Source: Candidatus Omnitrophota bacterium
GTDB taxonomy: Bacteria > Omnitrophota > Gorgyraeia > Zapsychrales > JAKLDJ01
Direction: 5' to 3'
NCBI GenBank assembly: GCA_022703585.1
Contig: JAKLDJ010000001.1
Location: forward strand, 310,891-374,890
DNA: 64,000 nt
Shown: in pieces, positions 1 to 49,000 of the stretch
Layout: every line of letters starts with the position of its first letter
Position numbering within the stretch: position 1 is the first letter of the stretch
The notes under the pieces: generated by a model
Told to the model about the DNA's origin: nothing
The model's database searches: none
The model's input: the letters and a program-made list of their open reading frames with translations, nothing else
Translations under genes and position numbers: made by a program

Positions 1-1000
1 GGGGGCCTATTTTTTCATATTTCAGGAAAGAGCTTAAGAGGTTTCTTCCTTGGGGATTATCCGGGCTATAATCAGCCAGCATTTCTCTGGTAATCCTGAG
101 GCGGATAACACCGGGTTGATCTTCGACGGGAACAATGTGCTCCTCGCCCCAGGGGACAGGATTACGCCGCAGATCTTCCATGATGGCATCTTCCCACCAT
201 GTTGTTTCTGCGAGGCCTGTCTTGAGATCGACGATTTCTTCGGATTCCTCGCCCTGACCTTCATCGTCCATCATCCCTGTCATCCCCATCATCCCCGGCA
301 GCACCATTACCAGCAGGCCGAGGTCGAAAACAGGGATAAAGGAGAACAGATTCTTTTGGGAAAACTCCTGTACGTCCTGTTCTGGTTTCGGCAATTTCGT
401 GACACAAAGAGTAAAGAAAGCAACCGTGCCATACTTATAGGAAGCCGTTTGAAGCAGCCATTTTAATGCCTCCACACCCACAATCGCTCCTCTACCCAGA
501 GATATTTCGAAACCGCCAAAGCCAGCCTTTTTTCTCAAGCGACCTAAAAGCGTCTCGGCAAGAACTGTCTCTATGGATAATTCATCATCTTCGAGATTAC
601 CTGTTTTATTAACAATACGTCTGTTGTCGCTTTTTCTTCGAACAACATCATCGTTATCGACGTAGTATTCTTCAAATAATCGCCTCCCGCTCTCGAGATT
701 TCCAACGCGTTCCGCTTTGAGCCTGTCCCCAGCGGAAAGCATGTCGCCGATCATCTGATAGATTTGCCCTCCTAATCCCTGCAAGGCCAGATTGGTCCTG
801 ACGCGGTTAAAGTAAATTGTGTCTAATGCTATCGCAATGGAAATTGTTTCATGTTCGTCATTTTCTTCGGTAAGCCGTCTGAGGAAGAAGGCATCGGAGT
901 TGGAAACCACACCGTCGACCTCTCTTTGCAGATAAACATCAACGCGATCTCCGCTCGCATCGGAGATAACGGCCTTGAGGATGTAGCTGTCGCCGCCTCT
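1..1000 (-). other. C-terminal-most module in the window; function unknown; acidic tail
   Basis: I translated 2-1201 codon by codon: ...LALQGLGGQIYQMIGDMLSAGDRLKAERVG...MMDDEGQGEESEEIVDLKTGLAETTWWEDAIMEDLRRNPVPWGEEHIVPVEDQPGVIRLRITREMLADYSPDNPQGRNLLSSFLKYEKIGP. There is no stop before position 1. Confidence 0.5.
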
Positions 1001-25000: not shown

Positions 25001-28000
25001 CACAATTCCTGTTTCTGCTCTTGCCAGAAAAGCAGCGGCCAAAACCGCATCTTCTGCGGGCTGTATTCTTTCTGCCCTGGCCGCGAAATCTTTAATCTCC
25101 GCAAGCCCTTCTTGTCTATCGCCGTCTATCGCCGCCAAAACCATCATCGGCACCAATGCCAGCATTTCGAATCCGGGCAACACGAACGCGGCGAGGGTAT
25201 CGTCTCCACGGGTTGTCGCATCCCCGGTTTCAGAATTGAACCAGGTGAGTATCCTGCGCGTCTCTGCTTCGCGTAACCGTGTCGACAGCCATTCCCGGGC
25301 CATAACGGGGTGCTCAATACGGAATTGCGCTGTCTCGGGTTCTTGAGCCAACTGGTTGATCTCGTTTAATACTGCCTGCGCATCCGTCATCAGGCGAGCG
25401 GCAATCTTGTCAATCTTTGCCGTATCGTCAGCCGCTGTCCCTTCGATAATTGCTTGACGGAAATGCACTGCCATGCGCATGGCTTCGTAGGCAACACCTT
25501 CTTGGAGAGTATTTTTATGGTCAACCAAGGATTCCAGGACGAGAATCGTGGCAGCCCCGAGGGAGCGAATGAGCGGTTCAAGGGTCCCTTCCAATCGGAT
25601 ACGGTAGACAGGCTTGTCACCGCCAAGTTCTTTGATGAGAAAGTTGATAAATTGGCGCGGGAACTGATAGATGCTATAAACAGTTTGGGCGGTGGCTATC
25701 AAATCTCCCAGGCTATCGGTATCCTTGCCGGTACGTTGACGATAAATACTTTTGAGTTCACCGCGCAGCATATCAATAAAATCATTTTCCACGGTGATGG
25801 CGATCGGCAGCTTGCCGGTCAAACGAATTTCCTTATAAAGAATGCGCTCAAACATCAGCCAGGCATGAAATTCAGCAAAACCCTCCATAAGCCAATGGAA
25901 TAATCTGTAGGCCTGTACGTTCAGACGCGGCTGCAAGGCATGATGGCGTTCGTGCAGCATAACCCAGGTCAGCCGAATGGGATCCGTAATCGTATCGTTA
26001 ATAAAATGCAGGTTTCGCGTGTCCCCGTTACGGTCGGTAATGGCCAGGAAGTGCCCTTGCGGTGCCTCGTCTGCATCGTCTATCAACGTCAAAGCCTGGC
26101 CTAAGGGTGTGTCATAGTTAAACAAAATAACGTTATACAAATTCATATGCCGCCTAAAGGCGCTGTTTAAAATGTTGGTAACGCTTCTTAAGACTTGCGT
26201 TTGCTGCGCCGTTGGGGCAATCGCTTCATCATTGATATGATGAATGAGCGAAATCACTTCAAGCACATCGCGGCTGCGCAAGTTATCCAAAAGCGCGACC
26301 ACTTTCTTTAATTCCGCTAACCGTTTTTGTTTCTCGACTAACAAACCATTATCGATCCGGGGATTCTTAAGATAAGTTTCTAATTCACCCACGCGATCGC
26401 TCCAGTATTCATAGTAGCTGTCCAGCGTCCCTTGCCGCTGCTCATTGCCCTCCGCCATCCCCAAGATCGGCGCTAGGGCGAAGAATAATAAAGGAAGGCC
26501 CGGCATAAATGAGGCGAGGACTTCGGCGCCGGATCTGTCAAAATTGCGGATTGAAGCAGCAATCAAATCTTTTGCGCCATATCCACTGTTTGCCTCAGCC
26601 GCATGGGGAAGAACATCCAATATCTCCTCCCAAAGTTCCTCTATGTGACCGTTTTGGATATCGGTAATACCATACACCTTATCCAAAATACCGGGTGCGC
26701 GCAGGCTTTCCCTTAATGCGCTTCTGACGCCACGAGCACCATATCCAGCATACACTAACCGGTGCCACTCATTCTCTTTCTGTCTAGTCACGAAGATACC
26801 TCGTGCGGCATTCAACGGAAGATCCTCATAAAAGATAACCTCGGTACCAACATTCTGGGCCAAGCCATGGTTGATTCTGCTCAAGGCAAAGGCCCCATCA
26901 TAGGCCACCAGCATCTTTTGCTGGCTCGTGCTGGCGGCAAAACGCTTCAGGGCTAATGAAGGCCGCATGCCAAAATAGATAGAACCGCGCGCCACGGTCC
27001 CGAGCCGATATCGTTTCAACTGGTCTACCGTTTCCTCGATATGGCCATTGGCATCTATACCTCTCGATCGGGCAAGACGAGCCAACCGATTTTTAATTCT
27101 CAAGAGAGTATGACTTTTCATTTTGGTCAACTCGTTTTCGGAAAAGCCAAGCAAAAGATGTCTAAATTCATCTTCAGTCAATTCAAAATCGGCCAAAAGA
27201 AGTTTCAGCCGGTCTCGATTGATCATAAGAGGATCACTGCTTAATTTTCTCTGAAGGATAACAACATCGGCACCATCATAAATACCGCGGAAGATATAGC
27301 CGTTTTTGGGTTGGAGTTGTTTGCTGGCATGTATCATACCCAGAGCCGGAAGGCTCATAAGTAAAGAAAAGACCTCCACGCCCGGCACAAACGCGGCGAG
27401 GGTGTCGTCTCTACGGGTTGCATCGTCCTTCCTGTCCCTATCATAAACCGCGTCAAGCATGTTCTTCAGTTGCCGAAGCTCCCGCACTCCCTCTAACAGC
27501 ATGTTCAAACGGGTAAAATTCCACAATACGATAACTTTGCATGTGAAACGCTGGATACTATTGAGCCTTTCGTCCTGGCAATTCTCTAACAGCGTCAACA
27601 AATTCCCCAGCTTGGTCTCTGTTCCGCTAAAACTGGTCAGGATCCTGCCGCAGAAATCATCTTCATCCCGGGCTCCTGTCCAATTTTTTCGTATCTCAGG
27701 GGTCCTGGTTCTGTCTTCAATCATTCCTTTACGTAAAGACGCGCAAAGTTCCCGGACTGCTTTTTGGTAGGCGGTGATCTCTTCTCTAATTTTCTTCGGT
27801 TCAAAAAATAAGAATGTGGTCAGAACGATGGCGAAATAACGGATATCGTCAATCACATTGACAACGCGGTATCTTATCCGGCGCGACAATATTGAAAGCG
27901 CAAGCGCGATCCCCAGTATTGCCGGCCAATAATTTTCAGCAAGATTGACCTCCCGGTCCATACCGAAAGCATTCGGAGGAAGAATCGCTGCTATCGTGAT

Positions 28001-31000
28001 TGCTGTAGCAAGACATCGCAAAAGTTTATCCCGGAACGAGGCATTATTATCCTTGCGTATCCCCGCCACAAAGACGGCGGGCCCCGCCAGAAGCAGCGGG
28101 GCAAGCAGGCCCGCCATCACCGCGGGCAGGACGGAAAGTAGGCCGAATATTTCCTCACCCGGCACAAAGGCGGCGAGGGTGATTTCTTCTTCGGCTTCAT
28201 TGGCGGTTGTATCAAAATGGGTACTTGCCGCATCGTTGGCGGGGCCGTTTTCTACTAACGCCTTAAATGCCGGGTTAGCTGACAGCCATTTTGAGAATTG
28301 ACTAACGGCCTGCTGCGGGTCGGCCCTGAACATATCCGTAATTCTAGACGGTAAAGGCTGAACATCGGAAACCGCGTATTGGGAATAATAGGTTAACATG
28401 GCACGGAGGATCTCTTCGGACAATAGAATATCTACCAGCTTCCGCGGTATGCTCTTTGGCTTAAATTCACCGGCCTGATCCCTGTTATCCGATGCCGCCA
28501 GGTTGATAATGTCCTCGAATAGATAAAGCAGTTCTATTTTTGTCATTAAGCCTTCGTCTGAAAAGATAACATATTCCGCCTGCTCAAAAGAGACTACTTC
28601 TTTACCTTTTAGGGCGCTGTCTAAGCTTAACGCAAAAGCAAATTGTTTTACTTTAGCCTCGCTTCTTTCTTTTTCCTCCCCGACAAATAGGTGTCTGAAC
28701 CTCGGGCGCTCAAAGAAAGACAGGAGAATATCTTTAAAGTTTTGCGGCGCAACCTTCTTACGAAGGTATTCCGAACGAGTGGGGCACGTCGCCAGCTCTC
28801 TTAAAGGAAGATCCAAGAAGGGCTCAAAGGTGCATGGCTTGATTTTGGAAAGTTTTGCGATAAGCCGAGTTAAAAGAACTTCCATGCTATACCCTCGGGG
28901 AACTGCCTTTCCCAATCGTCTGGCCGCCTCTACCGATTTCCGGGTCGCATAGAATATTGTTCCTATAGATATTTCATGGACTTGCATACGCGGTCTTCCA
29001 AGACGTTTAAGATGCCCTTGCAGCCTTGATTCAAAATCCAGGTAGGCACTACGGTCATCGTACATGTACTCATGGGGCCGGATTTTAGGATATTGCGAGA
29101 ATTCTTCTCTAAAAATAGCTAAGACCTTGGCCATGCGCGCATACACTTCGTCTTCATCCAACTTCATTGTCTTGGCCATTCTTTTCACGGCATAAGAATC
29201 CCAGCTTAAGTTCATCCTGAATTCATTTTGAAGCAGATTATTCAGCCTCTTAAAGAATGGCTGGGCTTCTTCGATGTGCTCGACAAGCCAGAAACCGTTC
29301 GTGGTAAATTCCAGTGAGAAATAATTATCTCTGAGGCCCTGCGGGTGCTTGTCCCGGTACTCGGCCACCACTTCCATGACATCCCAGAAAGATTCCTGGT
29401 CGTCGAGAGTATCCTCGCCAACAAGGTAGATGTGATACATTTGCATATTGGAAACTGCTTCGTTAATAATGCCGGAGATATACGCCCGCCTTTCTTGTTT
29501 GTCGCCTCTGTCGCCTGCTGTGGCGGAATTGGATACCTTGCGTCTTTCGCTGATGGTTTTTCCGAGATAACAAAACGAGCAGCGGCCGGAACACGGTTTT
29601 CCCGTACGATTAGTCTGAATCATAAGCGTACGGTCATACGAAGACGCGATAGATCCTTCATATCTGACTTTATCCAGCAATGCCTGAAGACGATTGACAA
29701 CTAATTGTCTGTCCTCTATCTGGCCCATCGCCATCCCCAAGTTAATGAGCTGCCCGAGGGCCAGGAGTAAAGAAATCCCCGGCACGAAGGCGTGGGAATC
29801 GGTCTCTGCCTGATCCTTAGAGGAATCAACGAGCGTATAAGCAATTTTTATGCGGTTCACTTGCACCCGTTCAATAACCACATCAAATAGCTCGCGAGGC
29901 GCATCTGTTTTTGAGTCGGTGTAGGTAATCTGTGAGGTTAAGAAGATTCTAAAATCAAATTTTCCGCTTGCCAAAAACGGTTCAACTTTCCACGCGCCCA
30001 TCCCTTCAAGCACGACAACATCGTACCTTCCCGAATTAACCGCTTCATCAACAGCTTTTGCCGCCTGATCATAATTCCAAAAGTCGTGCCCCGTATCACT
30101 ATGCCTGGCTTTGACAAGATAACGATCGAGATGAACAATCTTATAGGTGTACGGCCTGCGGTGAAAGAGGGTTCGAAATGCTTGGGCGAGAGAGCTCTTG
30201 CCGGTATTTTCATCGCCGTCCAAAAGCGCAAGGATTGGCCTCTTCCGGTTAAGTTCATCGATGCGCCGGATCATTTTTTCAAAGACCGATTTAAACGTGT
30301 CCGATGACTGGAGGACACTGGCTAAGACCATGAGACGGATTGCTATCCGGGTGAGAGGAATCATTAAAATAAGAATTCCGACAAACCCGAAAATAATTCC
30401 GATCGCTACGATTGGCCACGGCAGGGAAGCGGCGAGAACACCATCAGTTGACGGGGTCTCTGCCACCGGCCTGTACACTCTCATGCCGCTCTCATAGAGT
30501 TTGCAGTACGGGCTCGCGGGAGGCAAAACCATATCAATATGTTTAAACAACTCCGGCGACGGAAGTCCGCGCACCACGCTACCGGTGAGTAGATATCCGT
30601 GGTCCAATACCTGTCCGCGGATCACTCTCCAAAAAGAGTCTCGCGTCGCAAGAATACCGCCAAAACCCGGATTTTGAACAAGCACGACCGGAAAACGCTC
30701 CGTGATGCCGGCTAAATCTCCGACCAGAAAACGAATGTTAAATGCCCTATTCCGAAGCCACGGGGCAACAAATTTCTCTCCTCCGAATACAATACTCGCG
30801 GTCATTTGCCGGTCGGTCTCGGAATCGACAACTACCGAAGACCGGGACATGTCCACGTCGGGGAAGCGTTCTTCAATCGCCTGCCTTATTTGAACGGCCA
30901 TATCCGTAAGGGAACTCGGGAGAACCCGTCCCACCATCGTAATCTCTGAAGGGTCAAAGCAATCCACATAAACAAGCTCTTTAAGTTGCGGGAACATCCA

Positions 31001-34000
31001 AGCCAGCATCCGCAAGCTGTTGAGGTCAACCTCGCTGGCCGGATAATACAACGGGCCCTTGAATGTACGCCTGAATTCTTCAAAAGATTCAGATTCGGTA
31101 GTATCCCTTCCCTGCATCGTCCCTGCCAACGGCAATAATCCAATAAGAGAAATACCCGACAACATGAAGAGCGCGAATCCATGCAAAGTGCCGGTTTGAC
31201 CCGACTGACTATCTTGTATACTCTTAGCCGCCGGCGTCCCCCAAATCTCATCGATGGCTGCAGCTGCTGCCACACGAACCGCAGGACTGCCATTATTAGC
31301 GGCATTATATAATACGGTATACAGATTGGCGTCTTCCCGGTCGCCGATATGGCCCAAGGAACGAGCAGCCTCAACGCGCACGCTTGATTCAAGATCCGAC
31401 TGAAGCTTGGCAATAAGCGCGGGAACTGCCGTCTGGTACTGCTGGTCAACCATGGTAATCCCCAAGCTGCGGGCGGCAATAACGCCTAAGGCCTCGGCGG
31501 CTTTGATTCTGATCGTGATATCGACGCTGTTAAGCTTCGTAACCAAAGCGTTGATGGCATTCTGGTCCCTGGCGCCAAAATCTTTAATAACGGAAATGGC
31601 TGTCGACTGGGCGCGCAGTTCAGAGTTGGCAATCAACTCCAAGGCAATGGTTAATTCCTGGCCCAGCTGGCGGCGGATTAAAATCTCCAGGCCTTGCTGA
31701 GCGCCGTCTTCGATATCATTGTCTCCGTTAGAGAGCGTCGTAACCAGCAGAGTATAACCGGCTTCAAAAGTGGCAACCTCGCCCAAGAGGCGCGCGGACC
31801 ATTTGCGAACGATAGGCGACGCGGCCGTATTATTCAGAGTTGTGACCAGAGTCTCGGTTGTGATTGTCTGGGCGATGACACCTAATTCCGCTAATTCTTG
31901 ATAGGCGGCTGAGGCCAAGGTCTCTTCTTGGTTGGAATTGGTCAGCGTGTCAATGCGAGGCTGAATAACATTAGTTTGGACTAATATAAGTTCTTCATCG
32001 TTATTTCTAACAACGACCGCGGCAACGATAGTCTTCTCATCTGCCCACGTATATTCATCAATGTGTTCAAGGGCTTTAAGAAAATCTTCTGCGGTCCAAG
32101 TTGCGATATTCTTGACATCAGGTAATGTGGGAACCGGCTTCGTGGGATTATCCGAACAGCCCGGCAAAGAAACCAATAAGACCGGCGCGGCAATAGGCGT
32201 TAAAGCGACCATCACAGTTAACAACAATGAAATAACGCGATTGCGGATAGCGCGAACGAATTTAAATGTTTTTAAAGAAGAGGCCGCACCAGTATGAACT
32301 CCAAATCCACCAGCCACGGTTGGGGTTGAAGGTACTGGTTGCGGCCCTTTAAAGATCAGGGCCGAGGCAGGAGTCTTTCCAGCCACGGTTGGAGTCACCG
32401 CCAACGGCCCTTGGTTAAAATCAGAAGCCGCACCAGCAATGGTCCCAAATCTTCCAGCCACGGATGAAAGTGGGGTTGCCGGTAGCGGCTCTAAGTCTTG
32501 TGTCTTTAGTCTTTGGTCTGCAGTCTGTTGTCTTTCGCTTGTGCCCGGCGCAGCAGTCGTTTTCGCAAACCATTTTCTGTAAATAGCAATAACGCCAAAT
32601 CCTACAGCAGCAACAACGGCAAGGATTAAAGCTGCCTTGCTCACATTCACCGCCAAAACGAAGGGTAACATGATGGGATGAATGCCATGGAGGCCGGGAT
32701 TTTGCGGTGACGTTCCCGGAGTTGGCGGCAGAGAAGGCGTGCGGCCCGTGGGAACGTTGGGTAAAGCAGCTCCTCCCATTCTTTCGCTCACAGCATCGCT
32801 TACATGACCCGGTATTGCTCCTTCCCGAACGAGCTCTCTTAATCCTGCGAGAATATACTGCCTGCCTTCTTCTAATAATCTTTCGTCTTCGATTCTTTCT
32901 TGAGCAGCAACAGCGCGGTTCTTGCGGCTCGCAAATTTAATCAAATTCCTTATACTCCTGCAGAGGGAAACAAATCCAAAGATGCCGAGACCGACTGAAG
33001 AGACCAGGGCTGGTCCAAACCACGCGAATGTGACGCCGGCAAAAACGAAAATGCCCGTATAAAGGGCGATAGCCTTACGACGGATATCTTTAGGGAAAAC
33101 GAGGGCTACCGTTAATCCCACGGCATACACGACGCCAATAACTAAAACCAGGACTCCGGTGAGAAGAAAATCAACCGCGCGCAGATTTGCATCCCGGCCA
33201 AGTTCATTGGATTGAGCCGCCACGCGTTTAACCCGCGCCTCAGGCGACGGATATCTGTTGGTCAGCCACTGAATAACCGGCTCGAGAACAGGAATGCGGG
33301 ATTTGCAGATGATAATGATTCGATTGATTCTTAATACTTTATGAACCGCATCGCTAAGATCGGTAATCCCGATTTGAGCGAGGGCTTCGACTATCTGGGC
33401 ATCAACGCTGAATTCTTCCTGCCGGGACAACGGTGCGATGAATTTACGAATCCGGTATAGGATCATCGGGGTTTTTCGTTCACGCTTAAGATGAACGATC
33501 TCATGCCCCAGAAGATATGCCATGGCTTTTTCGTTAATCGCATTAAATCCGTGGCGTATAGATTCCCAGCCCAAAAGGATCTCGGCGCGGTTATTCTCAG
33601 ATCTGAGCTGAGCCCCGTAGAGGCCTTGTTCAACACGGATGGTTAGAATCGTACCCCACGGCAGGCGAATCACCGGCAATAGTTTTCCGAGAAAATCTTT
33701 GATCATGTCTTCAATCAGCCGCTCTTGAAACCGTGAAAAACGGCCAGAGAATACAATAGTGACTTCCCGAGCGGTCAAATAGTTCGGAAGCCCACCAACC
33801 CAGGGGGCCGGAGTTTGAGAAGCATTCCTTTCGACCAGCCACCGGCAGGCCAAAATACCCACGCCGACCATCGCCAGCGCCATCAAGGCAAAGATCTCCA
33901 GTCCCGGGAGAATAGCGCCTAAGGAGTCATCATCTTCTCCAAAATAAACTATGCCGCCTAAGACTTGCATAATCTTTCTTTGCAATGCGGCTGTCGCGTC

Positions 34001-37000
34001 AGACGGGCTCTTGACCGGCAGGAAACCTGTTGTTCTGTCAACGGTCACAAATAAAGAGTTTAAGAGAATCGTGATATCCCCTAAAAGATAGGTATCGGGT
34101 TGATAGACCGAGGTTACAAGAAGGACAGAGCCGGTATGGGTTTCTTTGATGGTCCACTCTCTGCCGTCGGGCAGTTCGATCTTTCTTAAGATACCGTCTT
34201 TGTCCTCTGATCTCCTCATCTCCTCACTCTGGTCAACCAGGGACCGCAGCTCTCTATTATCCGTAATATCCTCGGTGATATCTTTTACCGCGAGGTAAGG
34301 AAGGTGCATTTGTCTTTTCATCTCGCGGATTCTTTCGACCAATTCGCTCCGCTCTAACGCATCCATCCTGCGCAAGATTTCTTCCGTCAACATCCCTTGC
34401 TCGTAAAGGGCCTGCTCTTCGGCTGAGACATAACCAAGCATTTTAAGCGCGGCAGATGTCCTTAAGACATAGACTGCGGTATTAAATTCAGGAATGGCAT
34501 TTTGGTTGAACTTTTTAGTAAAACAGAAGCCTTCGCGAAGCTGGTTACGCCCGCCAACGGAAACAACCGTCCCGCCCGCCTCCGGTTTAACCGTAAATTC
34601 ATACTGGCTTGTGACATCAATGCCGTCTTTATACGCCCTTATGTAACCGGCAAAGTTTAAGTCAGAATAAGCGGCAAAGGCCTCAACCGGAGTCAAATCT
34701 TCTCCTTGAACATTGATAAGATCCGGGACTTCGATCCTTAAATCTAAGTCGCTAATCGTGTCCTTGACCGTATGGCTGCAGGGAACGGATCCGTCCGGCC
34801 CCCGCCTCTTTAATGTCTTCCAAACCTCACCCACGACTTTCCCTTCTTCTTTGTGGGTCACGGTAATCATCAGGGCTTTTTCGGCAACGACAACCAGGAC
34901 GTCCTTGCCCGAACGATGCAGGAGGCCGATGAACCCGGGATCGATAATCTGAGCTTGGCCTAAGTTATCAATATTCGATAAGAAGATAAAATGCGTGTTA
35001 TCTGCCACCATCTGCCTCAGCCTTCCTTCTAACGCCAGCCATTCAATAACCGCAAGATGGCCGCCCGGGCACAGATCGTTTTCTCCGGTCACCAGCTTAA
35101 AGATTTCTCCTGTCCGGGTCATTTTCTGGAAAACCCCGACCAGGTAGGGCCTAATTTTAGAACTAAAAACGGTTTTCGATAAGTGCCTCATAACCGAGTT
35201 ATGAGTAGAGTAGCTGTTGGCGAGATACACCGGGATTTCGGTTTTATAAAATCTTTCCATATAGCGGATATGGGCGAGTTTAAGATCGATAAATGTCCGC
35301 GCCTCACCCGCCCAGTCATTGATGATCGTGAACAAGGCCTTAACTGTCCCGCCAAATCGTGTCGCCAGGCCGCCATTGAGGATAACCTGCGCAACCCGGC
35401 TAGGCACCCTGATAGCCGCCTCGCCAAATGCCCTGTCCTGTGGGGTAATGGCATCGTAAAGCACTAAGGAATCATCTTTCACCGGCTGCTGTGCCCGCAG
35501 CTCAAGATTGCCGATCAGAGGATCTTTCCCGCTTAGAACGCTTTCGATAACTCCTGCTCGAACAGCTTCAAATTCTGCCTGATTGCCGGAGCCCGCATAA
35601 TCCCGCTCTGCCAAGAGATGATTTTGTAATTCTTGGGGAGAAGAATTCTCGAGCTCTCCTGTGCTAAGAAGATATCTGACAACGATGGGCTTGCCGCCAA
35701 AGATAAAATAGAAATAGGTGGCCGTAGGATAGCCCGAAGTTTCCATGATAACGATCGTCGAAATCGGGGTATGCCACTTAAATTCGTATTCGGAAAATTC
35801 AGCCTGCACTAAATCGTGTATTTCTTCAGGACCCATCCCCTCCCGGTTTAACGTCTCAAGGCGCAAGAAGATTTCCCTAAGAAGATTATCCGATTCGGAA
35901 GCAGTGACCATCCCCAGGAGCGCGAACGGCGCAAGGGCCAAAGGCAAGAGAGAAAAGAGCGATTTCTCTTCCTGGTCCGCATTGAGATCTTCCGTCAACC
36001 AAGCGTAGACATTCAGATAATCTCCCACGCTTCTTTCCCAGCCATTATTCGCTTGCATGGCGTTAATCATCATCTCATTCCAAAGTTCTTCATCGGAGAA
36101 CGCGGCCACGGCCCTGCGGACGGCAGAATAGAGTTGGTTGGTATTTTCCTGCTTCAACCCTGCATCCTCCGGCTTGCCGAGCCTGCGATAAACACCGTCA
36201 AAAATAAACCCGCAGCGTTTTTTGCCTAATTCAAACACCGTATCCCCGAGGCCCCCTGTCCTTCTCACAATCGGGAGGCATCCGAATCTCATCGCAATCA
36301 TCTGGAATAACCCGCTTGGCTCGTAATCGGACGGCATGTTACCCATATCTCCACCTGCATACAGCAGGTCGGCTAATTTTTTGCTGAAGGCGTTGACAAA
36401 GACAACAGAATCGTCCGTGAAACTGCCGGCTAACTCTTTGAGCTCTCTTTCCTGCGATTCGTCTCCGGAGCCTAAGATCGCCAAATCAAAACCGAGTTCT
36501 TCCTTCTTGCCTTCTTGAATCTCTCTGATCATTTGAGCGAGGATATCCAGCTGTTTCTGGTCTTCCAGCCTGGAAATGACAACCATTAAAGGACGCCGGC
36601 TATCGACAGAAAGCGAACCATAGACCATAGAAGATTTAAGATCAATTCTAGTCACATCGCCACCCCGGGAAAGAAGCTCGCGTACCAATTCCTGAATTTT
36701 AGAGCGTACCATCCGTACATGTTCGATACCGTCCTCGAGGCTATAATTAAGCCCGAATTCTTTTAATGTCTCGTTCGTGGCCGGGTTCCAGACTTCAAAA
36801 TCAATCCCGTTTAAAATACCGCCGAATCGTTCGTTGATATCGGCAAAGAGCGCATCGACTTCAAAAGGCGTATTTCTGATTTCACGGGCGTAACTGACAC
36901 TCACCGCATTAATATAATTTCCTTTAGCGCCCAGGGCCTTAATCACGCCGGGCACAATCGCCATCATATTGAGCTCTTCGGATTTGATGGCAATGCTTTC

Positions 37001-40000
37001 GAGCCCCATAAAGCCGCTGTTTTCAATTTCTTTTTGGCCGATTTCAGCAAGCCATTGAGCAGGGTATTTACCCTGGTAACCGCCGTTATGCACCGTGTAT
37101 ACGCTGGCAGTCTTCTTGAATTCCTGGCGGTAAATCGTACGCATATACAAAGGCACGAGGGCGGTATGGTGGTCACTGACGTGGATAGCATCCGGCCTCA
37201 CACCTAATTGTTTCATCATCTCCAGCGAACCGCGGGAAAGAAGAACGGAATCCCGGAATTCCAGCCGCATTCTCTTTTCTTTGTTTTCCTCATGCTTGGC
37301 GTAGGCCCGGACAAAGGCTTCCTTGTTATCGGCAACCAGCCAGTAAACGGTAAAGCCATTCACCTGGGCTTTTTTGGCGCGCAGAATTTCTATGCCGGAG
37401 TTAAACGGAATTTCAATAACCACACCCGTGTCTTCGGCGCCGTAAGATTCCATAACCTTGGCAATCGACGCAAAGCCGGGGAGGATAATACTGACCTTGT
37501 TGCCCAGCTTGGATAATGTCCGGAAATATTCATAGACATAATCGGCCTGACCGCCGACTTTTTCTCCTATCCTGGCAGCTTCCGTGGCAATGCCGACAAC
37601 CTCACCTTTGAATTGCGACACAACGCCAACCCGGCCGTTACCGTCAGGCAAATCAGCCCAGCCGATATTCCCCTGGGCGTCAACAAATTTGAATGTATAT
37701 TCAAAGTTTCTGATAGGCTTTATATCGACCCGGTAAAGCGCGCGGCCCCTGCTATTGCGGACAAAGGTCGCCTCGGTATCCGCCCATTCCCACGGATTCT
37801 TCATGTTGGAGTGCAAAAATGCCTTTAAGGTACCATCGTTGGGGCGGTTGGCATACGCTGTAAGCGTAACCTTTTGGCCAATCTTCATCGGGGCGGGAGA
37901 CTTTCTTAAATCGCCGCTTAAAGCACCTAAGGCGACAACCGGCATCATCGGCATTAAAAACAGGAACGCCCCCAATTCGGACGTTTGTGTTCCCTCATCA
38001 GTCTCTCCTGGCACGGCTCGCGGCACCTGCGTCACAAATACTTTTCCGTTGCCATACGGGAGGCTCGCCCAAGCAAAATCACCGTTGAGGCCTTCAAACT
38101 TCACGGTCCATTCGAAACTCCGGGCTGGGAATATCTTCAGTTCGTAGACGGCGCGGCCTTCAGCATTCTCGACGAATGTGAACGGCGTTTCAAAATCCTG
38201 CCACCGGCCGCTGATATCGGAATGAAGGATAACTCTCCGTGTGCCGGTTGCGTCAGGAAGATTACCATAGACCCTTAAAACGAGTCCCTGGCCTGCCTCA
38301 ATTTCGTGGCGCGCTTCTTCGAGGTCGCCTCCGAAGATGTTCGGGATGCGCCCTGCCAGGGCCTTTTTTGCCTCTTCGACAACCGTGTTTTCAAAAGCCA
38401 TTTGTTCCTCTTCGCTTCGGCCGAAAACATGCAGCGCTTCTTCGCGGGTCTTGACGCCTGCCGACAATAACCTGGCATATTCCTCTTCGGCAGCAATGAG
38501 CAGGGCATCTTCATACCGGATAGGACTATGCGTATGATATTCTTGCGGATCTTTAGGTAAGAACGGTTCCATATTTTCTGACACGGGAAGAGTCGGCAGG
38601 ATCTCCATGTCTTTCCTCGGGAATACAACGAACACGTACGGGCCGTAAGGATGCCGGGCCGGCGCATAGGGGAAGTAATGGGTCGAGGCCCATTCATAAT
38701 TTTTCGTTAAGGACGTCGGATTAGACCTGTTGCTGTAAGGTGTATTGAGCAGGGCGCCGCGGCGGTTGAGGACAACAGCCAGAATACCCTTAAACCCGAC
38801 ATTCCTCAACAGAAGTCCGGCACCTTCTCTTTGTATCCTCTCCCGTTCAATGTCATATCTGTACTTGTACGTTTCATAAACGCCAACATTGTTTTCTCGG
38901 TCAACAAAAGTCAGCTCAAAAATCATCTCGCCAAAGTCCGAACTTTGATATACCACGGTCGCTGGCGGATTACCGGACGGAACGAGCAGTGTCCCTCTCG
39001 ACCAGATCCTGTCCCCGACGGCATCAATCCTATAGGCGCGCGGTTGACCGTGCCGGTTAAGGATGATCACATCGCCGCATCCCCACAATTCGACCGGTTT
39101 ATTGCAGAACCTGCCTTCGTTGAATCGGGCGATTGTCCTTAAGATAGCGGCAAACCATTTTCCCGGCTTTAACTCACCATTTTTTGCGTTAGCCAGAATG
39201 AATTGCACAGATCTAAAATATTCCGGATAGGATATCATCCTGTTGATCAGGCGATTACTCGGATTACCTGTGCGGCCCAAGCGGTCAATCTCATAGGAGA
39301 GGAAAATCTTGAAGGCGTTATAAAGATGACTCAGGCGGGCCTGATCAGCGGCAAGTTCAGGGGATTCCGGCAAGGTGCGAACGGCGCGGACGTTTACATA
39401 GACGGTATTCCCGACCCCCTGGAGTAATGGGCCGGCCTTACCGTGAATCTCAAGAGCGAATTCTCTTTCTGTCTGGTTCATCATCCAGTCAATCAGAAAA
39501 TCTTTCTTCGCATCAAAACTGAAGGCCAAGGCGTCGAGGATTCGTTCGGCCTCAGGAAGAGCTGTGCCTTGAGGGAATGTGACGGTGATTTTATCATCGG
39601 TTCTTTGCACTCTCACCGGGAAGGTAACCGGTTCAAAGCCGGGAACTTCCTTCGCCATTACAGGGAATATCCCTTCCCAAATATTCGCCTCGTCCCGGAC
39701 TTGGCCCAGGAAGAAACTCGCCATCGACATAAACGGAATAATCGGCATCAAAGGCATGAGGGCGTTAAGAGATTCTTCAACAACCGACACTTCGCGCAGG
39801 CGGCGCTCAAAAGCGCTGCGGGCTTCGCTTAAATCTAGCAGATTGAAGTGGGGTAATTCTTCCTTCAGGAAAATGCCATGGCCGGCTACTTCAGGAACGC
39901 CATAACCGGTAATCATCCCTTCCGGCTTTGCCTTTCCTCTGGGGAAGATGTAAAGCCGGGTATCGGCTCCTGCCTGTCTTGTTACCCAGAGAATGTCAAT

Positions 40001-43000
40001 CATGTCTTCCGGCATGTGGAGGGCTTCGATTTTTCTGCTGGCGCCATCGACGATTTGCGCACGGGTTCCTTCGTAGACAAAATTCACGGCAGGCCAATTA
40101 TGGACACGGCTGGCATTATCAGGAGTCCGCTGAGTAAGTTCTTTTTCAACAATCGGGAATTGACCGAAGTAACCCTGGAAGTGGGCGTGCGTGCGAATGC
40201 TCCGGCCGGGGCCGTTCCAGAGAATGGACGCGCCGGGCATCAGTTCTGAAAGAATGGCCCCTATTCTGGAAATTTCGTTTAAGGACGGATAAACATTATG
40301 TTTGCGGTAAGAAATAACAAAGCTGGGCAATTCTTTCTTGTCATCGGTTCCCCAGAAGAACGGATTAACGTAGATATCCCAATCTCTTAAATTCGTATGG
40401 AACCGGCCTAAGTTAACGCCGCGTTCAACCAGCGGCATAAAAGCGCCGCAGAGATTACATTTGTTTTCGTCAGAATGCTGCTGTTTGAACAAATTCTTTA
40501 AAACGGTATCCCGGTAAATCTGTTTCAGCGCCAGATAAATGCCGTAGATGCCGTTTTTGCCGACATTATTAAGGATGTTGGCGAGGGCTGACTTTTTCTC
40601 GAGCGATATCCCTTTGGTGTAATTGGCGCCGCGATGGGAAACATTCACCAGCCGGTAATCTTTGCCGATCGGATAAATGGTAATACCTTCTAACTGTTGC
40701 CGTGTAATAAACCCTGCCTTCATTTGCTGCCGGGTAAGGTTCCGATAGGCTTCTTCAATAGTCGTGCCTTTGATCGGTCTAACCGCATTGCGCAACTCGC
40801 GAACCTTGCCGAAAAGAATGGCGAGAGCGGCAACAGCGGCAAGGATGGCGAAGCTCACGGGTTCAAACACTAATGCGGTAACATCTTCGCCGGGATTGGT
40901 TCCGTCGTTCCTGGGTTGATTGCCTTGTGCGGCCGGATCCGATGCCACAATGGGCCAAATGTTATACATAGGGAAGTTATCGCGGACATCCAGTGATTCA
41001 ATCAACGCCTTGGGCGCTGTCAAGACTCCCTTAATATCAAGTCGATCAAATTGGTCAACAGTCAAATCAACGATGAGCGTTTGCCCGGCGACATCGACCT
41101 CGGCATAACTATGGCCTTTACGTTCCGACTCCTGGCGTCTGATATAACGCGCCGTAAGACCGCTTTGCTGCGCCAATGTGACCGTGTGCTTAGCCCCTTC
41201 GGCACAAACAAACGGAAAATCATCATCAAACTCAAGAGACCTGCGAAGATCAGGAATAGTCTTGGTATCGTTCCAATGCCGGAGGATGACGTGCGTATCT
41301 CTTAAAATGGCCGCGAAGGTTTTAATCTCCCGCGCTTGGGCCGGAGTAACTTCAGAGTTTTGTTCGGCAGTTATCCAGCGGCTGAAAATGACGGCGAATC
41401 GTTCCGGGGTTAAGCTCACAAAGTCTCTGGCGTTAAAGTTTGCCGGTACCGGTGCATCAATATCTGAGCCTACCTCAGAAATATCCTCTTTCACGCTCAA
41501 TCTTTGGGCAACGATTTCTCCATCCTCAGCCTCCGGCTCTCCAAGATCAACTATATCTCCCAAGACTTCCATAATCTTTCTTTGCAATGCGGCTGTAGCG
41601 TCGGATGGGCTCTTGACCGGTAAAAAGCCTGTTGCTCTGTCAACAGTCACAAATAAAGAGTTTAAAAGAATCGTAATATCCCCCAAAAGGTAATCATCGG
41701 GTTGATAGACCTTGGTAATAAGAAGTACTGAACCTTTATAGGTTTCTTTGACGGTCCACTCTCTGCCATCAGACAACGTGACCTTTCTTAGGATACCGTC
41801 TTTCTCCTCCACTCTCCTCATCTCTTGACTCTGGTCAACCAGGGCCCGCAGTTCTCTATTATCCGTAATATCTTCGGTAATCTCTTTTGGCGCGAGATAA
41901 GGAAGATGCATTTGTTTCTTCATTGCACGGATTCTCTTGACCAATTCGTTTCGCGGTAACGCACCCATCCTGTGTAGAATTTCTTCAGCTGTTAATATCC
42001 CTTGTTCGTAGAGGGGTTGTTCTTCGGCGGAGATATAACCAAAAAGCTTGAGTAAGGCAGATACCCTCATAACATAGGTTGCGGTGTTAAACTCAGGGAT
42101 GGCATTTTGGTTGAACCCGTCTATAAAACAGAAACCTTCGCGCAACTGGTTACGCCCATCAATGGAAACAACCGTCCCGCCGGCCTCCGGCTTAACCGTA
42201 AACTCATACTGGTCCGTAACATCTCTGCCGTCTTTATACGCCCTGATGTAACCGGCAAAGTTGAAGGCAGGATAGTCGGCAAAGGCCTCGGCCGGAGTTA
42301 AGTCTATTCCCCCTATGCTGATAAAATCCGGGACATCAATGGTTAAGTCTAAATCACTAATAGTGTCTTTCACCGTGTCGCCGTGGGGAACAGATCCGTC
42401 CGGCCCCCGCCTTTTTAATGTCTTCCAGACCTCACCCACGACCCTCCCTTCTTTCTTATGGGTCACGGCGATCATCAGGGCTTTTTCGGCGACGACAGCC
42501 AGGACATCCTTGCCCGAGCGATGCAAGAGGCCGATAAACCCGGGATCAACAATCTGAGCTTTGCCTAAGTTGTCAATATTTGAGAAAAAGGCAAAATGCG
42601 CGTTGTCCTTCACCATATCTCTTAGCCTTCCTTCCAGGGCTAACCATTCGATAACGGCAAAATGACCGCCCGGGCACAGATCGTCTTCTCCGGTTACCAG
42701 CTTAAATACTTTTCCGTCCCGGGTCATTTTCTGGAAAACTCCGACCATGTAAGGCCTGATTTTAGAATTAAAACCGGTTTTCGATAAATACCTCATAACC
42801 GAGTTCTGGGTAGAATAGCTGTTAGCAAGATAAACCGGGATTGCAGTTTTATACTGTTTCTCCATGTAGCGAATATGGGCAAGCTTAAGATCGATAAACG
42901 TCCGCCCCTTACCGGCCCAGTTATCGATGATGGTAAACAAGGCTTTCACTGTCCCCCCGAATCGTGTGGCCAGGCCGCCATTAAGGACAACCTGGGCAAC

Positions 43001-46000
43001 CCGGTTACGTACCCTGATGGTCGCCTCGCCAAATGCCCTGTCCCCCGGGGTAATAGCAGCGTAAGACACCATGGAGGCATCTTGTACAGGCTGTTGAGCC
43101 CTCAGTTCAAGATTACCGATAAGAGGATCTTTTTTGCTTTTAACGTTCTCGATAACCCCTGCTTGAATAGCTTCAAATTCTTCCTGATTACCGGAACCGC
43201 TATAGTCCCGCTCTACCAGAAGGTGATTTTGTAATTCTTCCGGAGAAGAATTTTCAATCGCATCTGCCCCCAAAACATACTTAACAACAATGGGTTTACC
43301 GCCAAGAATGAAATAGAAATAGGTCGTCGCGGGATAGCCTGAAGTTTCCCTGATGACGATCGTCGAAATCGGGGCATGCCACTTGAAGCCGTATTCGGCA
43401 AATTCAGCCTGCAATAAATCGTGTATTTCTTCAACGCCCATCCCTTCCCGATTCAACGCCTCAAGGCGCAGAAAGATTTTTTTAAGAAAATCATCTGACT
43501 CAGAGGTAGTAATCGAACCAAATAACGGCGGAACAAAGGCAAGTACGGTGGCGGAACTAAGAGGCGTGCTAAAGAGGACGGTGGCAGCGAATAAGGCGGC
43601 AGCGATAATCAGGATAGCGGGCCCACCGCGGATACCGCCCTTCTTGGCCATCCAGTCGCGCACGGTTGAGGAAGCATCTTTGGTATTGCCTAATTGCCCC
43701 AGAAGCAGAATGGTCGGCATAATCATCATCGGCGCCAAATTCATCAAAGGCATGATGGCGTTTAGAGGCTCTTCGGGGGCTTTGGGCGCCTTGCCGGCCG
43801 GGTTGGCGGGCGCCTTCGGCGCAGCGGGCGTGTTGTCGACGGCTGGGCCTTTTTGGGTTAAAGGCGTGGTTTTGATGATTTCGAGGCGTTCGGGAGAATC
43901 AACGAACCATCTCGACTCATAATAATCCTCTATGTCATAATGTCCAACCTCAGGTTCATATCTAACTTCAAAATCATAACCTTGTTCTCGTATTTCTAAT
44001 GCTCTCTTCAAATAAAGATATAATAAAGAGGATCTATCCGTCGGTAAAGATTGCTGCATCTTCGCTAACACTTCAGAAACTAATTTGGCTTTTTTGCCGC
44101 CAATCGTAATTATAGATTCGGCAACTTCGAGAGAGGGTTCTTCCATCAACAAATTCCATAATGCTTCTTCTGCTATCTTATCTCCAGCTTGACCGCGAGC
44201 TATCAGCCTTCTCTTAGCTTCTGTCTTCTCTTCGGCAACCTTTTTCTCATGACGTCCAATGAGAGCACCAATGATATATATTACGGTAACGATAGCGGCA
44301 ATCACGCCCGCGATCAGCGGAAGGTCGGCGTGGACGGATGTAGAGCTGGGCCGAGTTTTGGGTAAATGTGACATTCGTGCATCATAAGTCTTAAATTCCC
44401 CTGTTTTTTCGTCAATAAGCGTCTGTGCAACTTCAGCTCGTGAAGCATTAATATCAGGAACCGTCTTCCAAATCAGGCTATTGGCCCAGGCAACGATTTC
44501 GGCTTTCAGCTTTTCTTGTCTTTTGTCAACCGGGGCTAAATCGACGCGCGACAAATCATTGCCGATGTTACTTACAGTTTGTTCCGGATTGTTGGCCAGG
44601 CCGGCAATAATAGCCTTGACTTCCTCCTGGGTTAACTCTAAGTCCTTTATTGGCCTGAAAAGATTTCTCTGGCGGCTAATCCTCCTAATAAATTCTTTAA
44701 ACCTGTCAGGATAATTCTTAACAAGATGCTCTAATGCTGATTCGCCCTTGAGGCCTAATTCTTTTGCCAAAAGACTGTCTTTTTGTGTAAGTAAATCCCA
44801 TTCATAAAAGCCGCCGTTTAAGAGCCGCATGACCGGCCAATGGGTGAATTTATGCAAGACAACAGAAAGGGCACGTTTTTCCTGAGCACTCGTAAGCTTA
44901 AGTTCATTAGCTATTTGATCCTCGGTATAGACAATAGTTTCCGTTTTGCCTTGAAGATGGTTGTATAACTTACGCGTTACTCCACTTTGCAAAAATCTTC
45001 CGCTCCTCACAAGGCCACGGATAACTTCGACTAAGGCAACCGCCCCTAAGCCACCCACGAACAATGTTAAGCTATTAAAATAAACGCCCACAGCCAATGT
45101 CAATACACCCACAAGAAGAGAAGAAATAATAAGCCTGCCCTTAACATTAATTGTCCTGGTTTTATCCGCCGCTTTTTCGCTGTCGTCTTTTTCTTTAGAA
45201 GATGAGAATCTGGATTTAACGGCTGGTATTATTTTCTTCATGGATGAGAGTCTGGATTTAACGGCTGGCATTATTTTCTTCATCTCCGGCATTTCGGGAA
45301 CATTGAAGTCACAGCCATATCTGTTGGCAATCTTTTTCATAATATCAAAAGAAGAATACCATCTATTTACCCAGAAACCTTTAGCCACATCAGCAAACAT
45401 TTCTCGGGAATTATTGTCAATAGAAAATCTCAAGGCCAACGGAAGAATCACGGTTACGTCTCCCAAGCCAAACATAACAGCCAAGGCAACAGTCAAGAAT
45501 CTCTCTATTGTTTTTTGGAATAAGAACGGCGCCGAGCGGGTATTCTTTGCGTTTGATATGCCAAGACCGGTAAGCATCGCATATATGCCGGCCATGGTAA
45601 AAAGGATAGCCGGATTAACCAAAGTAATGCCAGAAAACGCCATGCCTGCAAGAGCAAGCGTCATAACAAGCGGGCTTATCCAGTTCGTCCTGTGGTTAAC
45701 ATGAATAGCACGGGAATTAAAGAAGTGCGGCCCTACATCATAAGCAAACAAAAGAATGATATAGAGAACAGCGCTTACTAAGAATACCGCCGGATGATAC
45801 GGCGCAACAAAAATAACCAGCGGAAGAAGCGGGGTTGCGATCATCGGACCTATTCTCATGTAATTATAAATCTCTTTGGCGTCTCTTCTGTTAACAGCTG
45901 TTATGCGTGCCGCCATAATAAACACGTCTTTACCCTGGGTAGTATCTCTGGCCACGGCAAAGGCAAAGAGAGGATGCTGTGACGTAGAGAATACCGCCGC

Positions 46001-49000
46001 CGCAGGCTTAAACAAAAGGGCGTTGATAAACTTGAAGAAGCCCCAAGGCGCGCCATACTTGCTGTTCAATAATTTAATCAAGTTTTGTACGATAGAAAGG
46101 GCCAAGACCACGCCTGTCGCCACGAATGCCATGGCAAACGGGAAGGAGTGCGCCGGGTCAATAAATAATGCTAAAGCGAAGACTACAAAGGAAACAAGAT
46201 TGGACACAACCAAGAATTTCAGCCCCCAGAAACCGCCGGTGTTAAACAAATGGGTCCATTTCCATGTCTTCGGAGCTTGTGTACTCATATTAAGAAGCTG
46301 GCCTAACGAATCATGAATCATTTCATAGGCATCGCCGGCGTATTTTGCTTCCGTACCGTAGTCAGATTTGTAATCCGCTACTTTGGCGCCACCCATAAAC
46401 ATAGAATGGTTGTAGGCCACATTGATACCGAGACCTAAACCAAGAAGGGTCAGGGTCAAGTCTTCCGCGTTTCTCGATAAAGGCGAGATACCGTACATTT
46501 GTTCGTATTCTTCCTTATGCATGTATTTACCGTATTCTCCGACCTGACCGGTTTTATTCATGAAAGACTGAACCATCATAGTCCAGTTGGACTCATTAAA
46601 ATCTTTTACTCGGGCGACATCAGAGAGGTATTTATCAGCCACATACATCGGGAAAACCAGGCCCATGACATTTTTGCGGGAAAGCTCGTCCACGTTGTTG
46701 ACAATCCAGAATCCTTCTTCCGGTTTTACCTCCATAATAGCGTCATGGCGGATAGAAACGTCGTAGCGGTAACGGGCAAAATTGGCGATAAGGGTTGCCT
46801 TAAAGATTGCTGTCATTTCCGGCATACCGGAAATACCTTTACGAGAGCCAGTATGCGGCTGCCCCTCATTGGCCAAGCGGGAATAAAAGAATCTGTTTTC
46901 CGGACGATCTCCAATATACGTATTTGATACCGCCCCGCCCAATCCAAATTGTTGATATACAGCATAGACAATAAACTTCTTAGCAACTAATTCATCGTAG
47001 TACAGGTCAAATAAGAGGAATTGTTTTTCATCACCGCCAATGGCAGCAAGAACAACCGGTCGCTCTTCTTTTTCATTTAACAATATAAGTGGTAACCATC
47101 CAGTACGTTTTACCGTTCCGGCCAATTCATCGATTCTCGCCTTTGCAATACCAGCGTCTTCTCCAGCGTTTTTCAAAACCTCAAGAACCTTCTCAGCTAA
47201 CGCTCTTCTCGCATTGCCCGTGGAGAGAGGTCCATAGAGTTCTTTTAATTTCTGATATTCTTCATTATAAAAACTATATTCGGCAACATTTCTAAATCCG
47301 GACGCCTCTTCCTTGAATCCTTCCAGCGTACGATATATTGTATTCATTCGCATGTTTGCCCAATGGATGATCTGCTCAATAACCCATTCGCTTCTTACCT
47401 TTCCAAGATTAGCTTCCAGCTTCGCTCGTAAAATCTTGCCCTCCAGCTGCGTTTCAAACTTGGCATTTCTGACCAGGACCCTTACTTCTGCTTCCAACCC
47501 ATCCTCGTCACCAGCAACACTTAAAAGTTCGAAGGTGTCGGCAAATCTTTCCCATTCATACGGGAATCGATGAACAACCAGGTTGTTAATTTCTGTAGGA
47601 TAAACCGTCTTAGTTTCATCCCAAGCCGCTTGTTCTTCTTGGCTGAGCAAGAGGAATTGTTTTTCCATATCAGTAATAGCGCTAAATATGGCTGTGCGTT
47701 CAGTTTTCGTTAATGCTGCAAACGGCAACCATCCTATATGTTCTATTGTTACGGCTAACTCATGAATTCTTTTCTGTCCAATACCGGCTTCTCTTAAAGC
47801 ATTAAGAACATTTTCGGCTAACGTTTTCTTCGCATCACCGTTAATGTCAAATTCGAGGAATTGTTTTTCCGTATCAGTTATAGCGCTAAAAACAGCTGTG
47901 CGTTCTGTTTCCGCTAACAATGTAAGCGGCAACCATCCGGTATTTCTTATTTCTTCTTCAAGCTTATTAACCCTTGATTTTTCAATACCGGTTGCTTTCA
48001 AAGCCTTAAGAACCTTATCAGCTAACGCTCTTCTCACGCTATCACTTGCCGGTCTCTTTGCCGCGGTCCAATTGATAAGGCCAGGAATACCCTTTATCTT
48101 TTCTGATACCTTCTCCCTATCATAGCTGTACATGAAATTTTCGTCCCAGCCGGCATGATAAAGCGTCATGACCGGCCTTTCGGTCCATTGCCTAAAGGCT
48201 TCCGGCGTATCCAAATTGTAGAATGCACCCAAGATTCTTCTAAGGCTGTCGGCAAATTTCTCATCGCTTCCTTTGGGGGTAACCACTTCGAATCGTAGCA
48301 GCCTATTTCTTTCCTCTCTACTCATTGTATTATTGCCGGCCCTGGCCAAAGCGGTAATTTTATCTGCCCAGTATTCTTTAGCGCGGGCTTTCTTGGTTGC
48401 CTCTTGGTCCCCAAATCCCTTAACGCTAAAATTATTAAGATGCGCGTTCTGATAAATTCCGATCATGCGCGTTTGTCTCCAGGCGAAGAGCCCCAAGACA
48501 ACCGCAATAATAACCGGAATAAACATTGTTGCTGTTCCGGTAGCCGAAGCTGTCAACGCGGCAAAGTTGACAACGACATATCCTCCGCCGATAAGAGCTG
48601 CCGTCGCGCTAAATATACTGAGAATCCAAACAGCCGCCTTGTACCCTTTGGTCGAAACTGTCTTACCGTTTAATGCTGCTTCCACAGCCTTTATGGCATG
48701 CGGTATTTCAAAATTATACTGGATATAGAAGCGGCGTTTTTCTTCAATCACTTTCTTGTTGATTATCATCTGACCGATATACATACCGCCGCGAATCATA
48801 AAGAGGAACGATAGCCCCAGGATGATATGCGCCGGAATGGCAATCAGTGGAAGAAACTTCCATAAGTTTTCCAGGCCAATCAATCCGGAAACCTGGGCCA
48901 ACATCGGCATGCTGAAGAACCAGGAGAAAACAGGAATCATTACATTAACCAGGGCCGGCCAGGATAAGGCGTATTTGCCATTAGCAATTTTGTCTAAGAA

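Follow-up and report, generated by a model that had tools for sequence, protein, structure and literature searches.

Giant proteins of the Omnitrophota have been described as 'Archaeovorins' (West-Roberts et al. 2023, bioRxiv 10.1101/2023.11.21.568195), and one class of them, class 1, is known as the 'multi-enzyme metabolic cluster' class (bioRxiv 10.64898/2026.06.07.730766). A Pfam family is repeated at least twice in 65% of such giant proteins, and these repeats were concluded to be ancient and dissolved at the nucleotide level (10.64898/2026.06.07.730766). The present analysis concerns a stretch of 64,000 nucleotides (nt) of contig JAKLDJ010000001.1 (assembly GCA_022703585.1, positions 310,891 to 374,890), hereafter the window, which is filled by part of a single giant gene. 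Unlike the dissolved repeats of the 2026 preprint, one pair of repeats in this gene is still 82% identical in DNA. Very probably, this pair arose from a single in-frame copying of one segment of ~1.97-2.0 kb, encoding one enzyme module, which took place inside the giant gene and left the copy in direct orientation; the event would be old, with both copies selected and gene conversion undetectable between them.

The gene appears as a single stop-free frame of 21,333 codons on the minus strand (2..64000), which a stop scan found to cover the entire window and to run off both of its ends. Residue i of this frame corresponds to window position 64000-3(i-1), counted downwards, and the features described below lie on the same strand unless stated otherwise. 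Because the frame is open across the entire window, all features of the duplication are intragenic. Pfam matches above cut-off along the frame are Peptidase_M23, UDPGP (twice), Glyco_transf_5, Glycos_transf_1, HEAT, Epimerase, Metallophos, PTS-HPr and HD; matches below cut-off are Radical_SAM (twice, 16.6 and 16.7 bits vs 29.5), Phosphorylase and HD_4. Fifty-five hydrophobic, transmembrane-like segments are found along it. The frame thus resembles the Omnitrophota giants in its length, far above 10,000 amino acids (aa), in its HEAT, GT5, GT1, HD, M23 and epimerase domains and in its many hydrophobic segments, as well as in the presence of radical SAM, although both matches to the latter are sub-threshold. 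A neighbouring type II secretion / pilus locus also belongs to the picture of these giants; the window is situated entirely inside the gene. UDPGP modules are not mentioned in the two preprints, the terms 'UDPGP' and 'pyrophosphorylase' having no occurrence in 10.64898/2026.06.07.730766 and 'uridylyltransferase' none in 10.1101/2023.11.21.568195. The best assignment of the gene is to an Omnitrophota-type giant gene, since this repertoire fits the published descriptions and since the closest relatives of two independent window modules, the duplicated module (U) and a glycosyltransferase module (G), include metagenome-assembled genomes (MAGs) of Candidatus Omnitrophota/Omnitrophica, at 46-50% identity.

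Growth by module copying is a recognised route in polyketide synthase (PKS) and nonribosomal peptide synthetase (NRPS) genes, whose very long open reading frames (ORFs) undergo in-frame duplication of complete catalytic modules, with linkers as the boundaries. Duplicated PKS and NRPS modules often bear an obvious mosaic pattern left by gene conversion, and they process a tethered intermediate. In contrast, no conversion is detectable between the window copies, and their modules are predicted to be ordinary soluble-type sugar-nucleotide enzymes.

The direct repeat and its edges

Comparison of the window with itself by blastn yields one long diagonal, in which 33936-35905 aligns with 41538-43510 over 1,973 columns at 82.06% identity with a single 3-nt gap. 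Portions of the same ~2-kb repeat are recovered at 81-84% by a separate repeat-finding scan, and identity across the copies in 150-nt windows ranges from 74% to 90%. The first-pass annotation of this DNA had reported two paralogous stretches of ~1.9 kb at 80-88% identity, and the diagonal of ~1.97 kb bears this out. In the self-comparison, no other DNA repeat longer than 173 nt is found in the 64-kb window.

Both copies have the same orientation, with a start-to-start offset of 7,602-7,605 nt, and they are in frame because the offset is a multiple of 3 (7,602 = 3 x 2,534). Copy B, upstream in the protein, extends over 41538..43510 (residues ~6831-7488) as a DNA repeat and over 41510-43561 (residues 6814-7497) in the protein alignment. 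The corresponding limits of copy A, downstream in the protein, are 33936..35905 (residues ~9366-10022) and 33908-35959 (residues 9348-10031). The two protein segments are 79% identical with two one-residue gaps, so that, as previously noted, they are far closer to each other than the other paralogues of the gene (33-39%), including the radical SAM-like pair (33-38%). The G+C content and the G+C content at third codon positions (GC3) of both copies fall inside the distribution of the host gene.

The edges of the repeat are sharp. Indeed, nucleotide identity outside both of them falls to random level (~25%) within a few codons, and the 1,850-aa stretches flanking the copies display no significant mutual similarity. 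The hydrophobic linker LFSLLPLALAPFALLGMVT (35903..35959, residues 9348-9366) stands at the 5' edge of copy A, the DNA repeat beginning at the linker's end, and a hydrophobic segment (43511..43615, residues 6796-6830) stands at the 5' edge of copy B. On the 3' side, copy A leads directly into a conserved punctuation motif, the first instance of which, YFGEDDDSLGAILPGLEIFALMALAMVGVGILAC (33845..33946, residues 10019-10052), straddles the breakpoint. Collinear, direct, in frame, sharply bounded and set between unrelated flanks, the copies fit the discrete segmental duplication within the giant gene that had been proposed. A simple tandem duplication was considered and rejected, as the repeat measures ~2 kb vs a spacing of 7.6 kb and the downstream flanks of the copies share nothing.

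The antisense ORFs of the region had likewise been regarded as paralogous. Only one pair of them (34713-34952 and 42315-42557, plus strand) is positionally equivalent. All are short (64-189 aa) and are by-products of the repeat, not evidence for genes.

Two similar copies in one contig could also stem from the assembly itself, through two diverged strain variants stitched in series or through a collapsed or expanded repeat, and the locus is known here from assembled sequence alone. However, every k-mer common to the two copies is shorter than 28 nt, and identity stays at or below 90% in all 150-nt windows, so that assemblers had no reason to confuse them, and neither de Bruijn graphs nor read mapping would be misled. 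Moreover, the four repeat junctions are all in frame within the 64-kb stop-free ORF, the flanks of the copies are unrelated, and the copies are separated by 5.6 kb of unique sequence (modules M and G) with independent homologues elsewhere. The differences between the copies also follow the codon-position pattern expected under purifying selection. An assembly artefact is therefore extremely improbable; the hazard of which the first-pass annotation had warned is not supported, and the chance of repeat-induced mis-assembly, for which there seems to be no realistic route, is probably negligible.

The enzyme module encoded by the repeat

Each copy includes a UDPGP (PF01704) core, located at 42479..43111 (residues 6964-7174) in copy B, where it contains the nucleotide-binding loop LNGGLATRFGG, and at 34874..35503 (residues 9500-9709) in copy A. 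The Pfam matches of the two copies reach 91.6 and 87.0 bits vs a cut-off of 22. They span positions 21-226 of the 413 of the profile, and the remainder is recovered by a family profile. The family alignment comprises 88 sequences, with 86 homologues from an exhaustive search. A scan with the family profile finds only these two modules among the 21,333 visible residues, the gene continuing beyond the window. When a two-copy profile is compared with the PDB, solved eukaryote-type UDP-glucose pyrophosphorylases are matched at ~1e-10. In this alignment, the loop LNGGLATRFGG stands against LNGGLGTSMG of the solved enzymes, and the motifs GH and SN.DNLG are present. The loop pattern LNGGxxTxxGG and the motifs GH, SN.DNLG, GGT and FNT are retained in both copies.

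An AlphaFold2 model of the 684-aa unit, built on the alignment of the unit with the 86 homologues, is a confident single body with a mean predicted local distance difference test (pLDDT) score of 84.2 and a predicted template-modelling (pTM) score of 0.86. Foldseek relates it to UDP-GlcNAc and UDP-Glc pyrophosphorylases of the UAP1/AGX1/UGP type (8yp3, 6g9w, 1jvg, 2icx, 2i5k; E ~1e-18 to 1e-15, the lowest being ~2e-18), over alignments of mostly 560-620 columns (514-625 over the top 50) and with template-modelling scores normalised to the target of 0.53-0.64. From AlphaFold2 and Foldseek together, the unit is predicted to adopt the three-domain pyrophosphorylase fold. The model is disordered at unit residues 1-15 and 680-684, which match the limits of the DNA repeat (protein residues about 6831-7490 and 9366-10024). 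The duplicated DNA thus encodes exactly one complete folded UDP-sugar pyrophosphorylase-like module of ~660 aa, as far as the model indicates. The earlier description, a UDPGP-like module plus flanking sequence in both copies, holds for the module; the flanking sequence is not additional material, because the disordered ends of the model coincide with the repeat limits, and it corresponds to the N- and C-terminal parts of the same predicted fold.

The window module resembles the PF01704 enzymes (UGP, UAP1/AGX1, USP) in its Pfam match, its PDB profile matches, its full-length predicted fold and its motifs. It differs from them in being embedded in a giant polypeptide instead of forming a free enzyme of 370-500 aa, in carrying insertions of ~100 aa, in its identity of 25-30% to standalone prokaryotic homologues and in deviating at a few near-invariant positions. 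Ten residues invariant in the family (G195, G196, K206, G299, H300, N328, D330, N331, G461 and E475) are all kept in both copies. Of the 110 conserved columns, 63-64 agree with the family consensus in either copy; A and B differ from each other at 14 of the 110. Functional divergence between the copies is not supported, the consensus being matched equally (64 vs 63 of 110) with no sign of decay in either. Both modules may be active nucleotidyltransferases, making a nucleoside-diphosphate sugar beside, and for, the tethered GT5-GT1 glycosyltransferase. Retention of the second copy could be explained either by dosage or local supply, or by a specificity for sugar or nucleotide that has diverged.

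Age and origin of the copies

The two copies differ at 16.3%, 10.4% and 31.5% of first, second and third codon positions. The synonymous distance (dS) was estimated at 0.48-0.66 by four methods (NG86, LWL85, YN00 and maximum likelihood), with a nonsynonymous distance (dN) of 0.12-0.14 and a dN/dS ratio (omega) of 0.19-0.27. A recent duplication would be expected to show a dS well below saturation, e.g., <0.1. Because the synonymous distance is substantial, the term 'recent', applied to the duplication in the first-pass annotation, is valid only relative to the other paralogous modules of the gene (33-39% aa identity) and not in absolute terms. A relative-rate test with an outgroup module as reference assigns 29 unique amino acid changes to A and 20 to B (p = 0.25). 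By these substitution patterns, both copies have long been under purifying selection and have evolved independently at similar rates.

Ongoing gene conversion had also been suggested. No other paralogous pair in the gene comes near the similarity of the two copies, and repeated-domain architectures in such giants have been reported as mostly ancient (10.64898/2026.06.07.730766), so that the pair could be an ancient one held similar by conversion, either ongoing or in one past event over the whole unit, its 82% identity then under-reporting its age. Nevertheless, the identity is not patchy: dS in 60-codon windows varies from 0.37 to 0.95 with no near-identical tract, identity is not raised in any window, and the longest stretch of exact match is 27 nt, shorter than the ~32 nt expected on average if the differences were scattered evenly. 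Permutation tests, applied to third-position matches and to identical-codon runs between the copies, are non-significant (P = 0.88-0.94), and the sharp repeat edges coincide with fold boundaries. In general, copies at 82% identity with exact runs of at most 27 nt are poor substrates for homologous recombination. With divergence this even, no run beyond 27 nt and non-significant tests, the copies bear no apparent sign of ongoing or recent gene conversion. One complete conversion would be indistinguishable from a duplication of the same date, and the conversion scenario as a whole is considered very unlikely.

No close relative of the unit was found in two genome-contig scans, in two metagenome scans, the last of which looked for the fully conserved peptide FNQNAIPEFNTA by means of a degenerate pattern, or in a word-seeded protein search; the protein of the window itself was likewise missing from these collections. 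An exhaustive HMMER search of 1.84e9 representative proteins returned a single close relative, MCX5710361.1 (P0001), a 5,800-aa partial protein from the Candidatus Omnitrophota MAG GCA_026387555.1. Its module has the same limits as the duplicated unit and is 46% identical to B and 45% to A (48% and 47% in a three-way alignment). The next matches are standalone prokaryotic UDPGP-family proteins of ~370 aa (25-30%) and a few long multi-domain proteins. A and B are mutually closest relatives by a wide margin; therefore, the P0001 lineage had already split off when the duplication, or the last homogenisation, took place, and the duplication appears to be lineage-specific.

A further possibility is that A or B is xenologous, acquired by recombination as a cassette from another giant gene or from a related strain or species. 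Module order differs among the relatives, so modules do move, and a dS of ~0.5-0.65 is on the scale of divergence between species. This origin is nonetheless judged to have hardly more than a slim chance, since the GC and GC3 values given above are those of the host gene, the evolutionary rates are symmetrical, the sole other carrier among the 1.84e9 representatives is only 45-46% identical, and just two copies occur in the window, though the gene continues beyond it.

As for the polarity of the event, the contig encoding P0001 (L001) carries a U-type module followed by a GT5 domain 3,500 residues further on, where the contig ends. Copy B probably stands at the parental or ancestral position, because L001 shares with it the order U ... 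GT5. An attempt to recognise the parental copy by extension of homology into the flanks was not successful: the blastp alignment between P0001 and B runs 18 residues past the edge, and the three-way alignment includes no convincing homology there. A second, highly diverged UDPGP-like module (26% to the window unit) lies in L001 between the U-type module and GT5 (L001 24890-25324, P0001 residues 4957-5264) and has no window counterpart.

The duplication reading, preferred here over conversion, xenology and artefact, has several points against it. Both copies and the outgroup depart from near-invariant positions of the family, GHG being replaced by GHF/L and K560 by E/D, with a Lys one residue away. 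No relative more than 50% identical to the unit is present in the collections searched, so that the duplication is bracketed only coarsely, and a single ancient conversion of the whole unit would look identical to it. The assembly was judged from the assembled sequence itself. Finally, the assignment of B as parental is weak, resting on one positional argument from a contig that ends right after GT5.

Module order, the punctuation motif and growth of the gene

Along the protein, the layout is U_B - M - G - U_A, in which a predicted sugar-nucleotide-forming module stands on each side of a predicted sugar-nucleotide-using transferase. Copy B is followed by 238 residues and then by module M (39758..40795, residues 7736-8081), which has no Pfam match. 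Module G (35981..38377, residues 8542-9340) begins with two ~120-aa domains in tandem, which precede a glycogen/starch-synthase-like GT5 + GT1 domain, and a gap of 8 residues separates its end from copy A. The tandem domains (residues 8556-8675 and 8694-8813, window 37562-38335) are 39% identical, form an older pair and may be carbohydrate-binding; a second contig, L002, appears to have a single copy. The closest relatives of module G are 50%, 46% and 36% identical, the second and third being from Candidatus Omnitrophica MAGs, and are followed by ordinary GlgA at ~30%.

Module order was compared between window residues 7736-9366 and 13974-14668 and two contigs of relatives, L002 (6030-9143) and L003 (1-4198). 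In L002, a G homologue (45-54%) is followed after 34 residues by an M homologue (41-60%), with no U on the contig; the window order is the opposite, M standing before G and shortly after copy B. In L003, the G homologue is followed by a homologue of the phosphorylase-like module of the window (residues 13974-14668), which in the window is located 4,600 residues further on. No U follows G in the relatives examined (L001-L003), homology of the G context stops at about residue 9344, and a search for an empty site with the sequence downstream of copy A gave no match. Since the module after G differs (L002: M; L003: the phosphorylase-like module; window: copy A), module order is fluid among the relatives, and the site of copy A is a junction of repeated module gain, loss or exchange. 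The G|M junction of L002 has its counterparts in the two window junctions that flank U, G|U_A and U_B|..M, which hints at an ancestral adjacency G-(U)-M or at a duplication with a 7.6-kb period followed by losses.

ORF overlaps or interruptions are seen in these relatives at L001 7982-8000 and 27372-27508 and at L002 8483-8763. Long ORFs lie in different frames and share a few codons, and an in-frame stop breaks the L002 region homologous to the uninterrupted module M of the window. The 'separate genes' of these contigs may be pieces of larger genes interrupted by errors or by real stops.

Eight instances of the motif met at the 3' edge of copy A lie within residues 10019-17219 (window 12344-33946), with starts at residues 10019, 11941, 12192, 12927, 13544, 15848, 16652 and 17195. 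The motif is composed of an acidic run, (T/S)(L/M)(A/G)A(F/L)V, LPG(F/L)E(I/L/M)(L/F) and a hydrophobic stretch, and was found with an iterated profile for which shuffled controls gave 0-1 matches. Its instances often stand directly ahead of modules, such as the epimerase (residue 13583) and the second radical SAM module (residue 16698). A hidden Markov model of the motif has no match in L001-L003. The motif has the look of an internal element of the sorting-signal type, but a known sorting signal was rejected, NCBIfam giving only one sub-threshold match (Heimdall-CTERM, 15.1 bits vs a cut-off of 24, one instance). A homologous-recombination substrate was rejected as well, because no two instances exceed 69% identity over 51 nt or match exactly over more than 12 nt, i.e., microhomology at best. 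The motif may serve as a module delimiter, a membrane anchor, a processing site or a recombination point.

Other repeats of the frame are smaller or older. The two radical SAM-like modules, at residues 11416-11876 (28373-29755) and 16698-17153 (12542-13909), are ~460 aa long and 33-38% identical; they form the only other module-scale paralogous pair at the detection threshold of the protein self-comparison and represent a much older intragenic duplication than the UDPGP-module pair. Short tandem repeats with a period of 204 nt (68 aa) are found at 47651-48027 (residues ~5318-5700; ~76% nt and 41-53% aa identity), and a 42-nt unit is present in two copies at 95% identity at 45201-45283. The G+C content is 0.435-0.453 at window positions 44001-52000 vs ~0.49-0.52 elsewhere in the frame, and residues ~4840-5175 and 5929-6331, within this stretch, are rich in hydrophobic segments. 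A second type of repeated hydrophobic segment (ILAAG.ALSL...) is located at 1072-1135 and 2371-2434 (residues ~20956-20977 and ~20523-20544), with 83% identity over 64 nt.

Under the duplication reading, the ~2-kb segment would have behaved as a cassette, one building block being duplicated, as its breakpoints fall at junctions between hydrophobic linkers and globular modules. The event would post-date the separation from the one lineage otherwise known to have such a module and, with a dS of ~0.5-0.65, would lie far back in absolute terms. It could have proceeded by duplicative insertion at the junction after G, or by duplication of a 7.6-kb tandem block with later deletion. The match between breakpoints and fold boundaries would reflect selection for in-frame, fold-preserving events, possibly aided by microhomology in linker-coding DNA. 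A broader and rather unlikely proposal is that the whole gene is a string of cassettes, each a hydrophobic linker plus one folded enzyme, which grew as whole cassettes were copied and inserted where linkers meet modules. The motif would then mark these junctions; recombination might favour it, or it might act as a signal for membrane anchoring or processing that makes each enzyme semi-independent. In that case, the duplication of U would be an intron-free analogue of exon shuffling caught in the act.

The event itself is ordinary, a module having been duplicated in a giant gene of a class whose repeated domains had been reported before. The interpretation as a recent duplication under gene conversion should be dropped, and the repeat is no threat to the assembly. 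What stands from the first-pass annotation is duplication as a mechanism of growth for giant genes, as one whole module was copied in frame and both copies were kept. Giant bacterial genes of this type have been known for only a short time. To the question of how they grow to tens of thousands of codons, the pair brings a clean, datable example of growth by whole-module copying at linker boundaries, and the non-conserved module order relative to three distant relatives supports the picture of giant genes as shuffled strings of cassettes.

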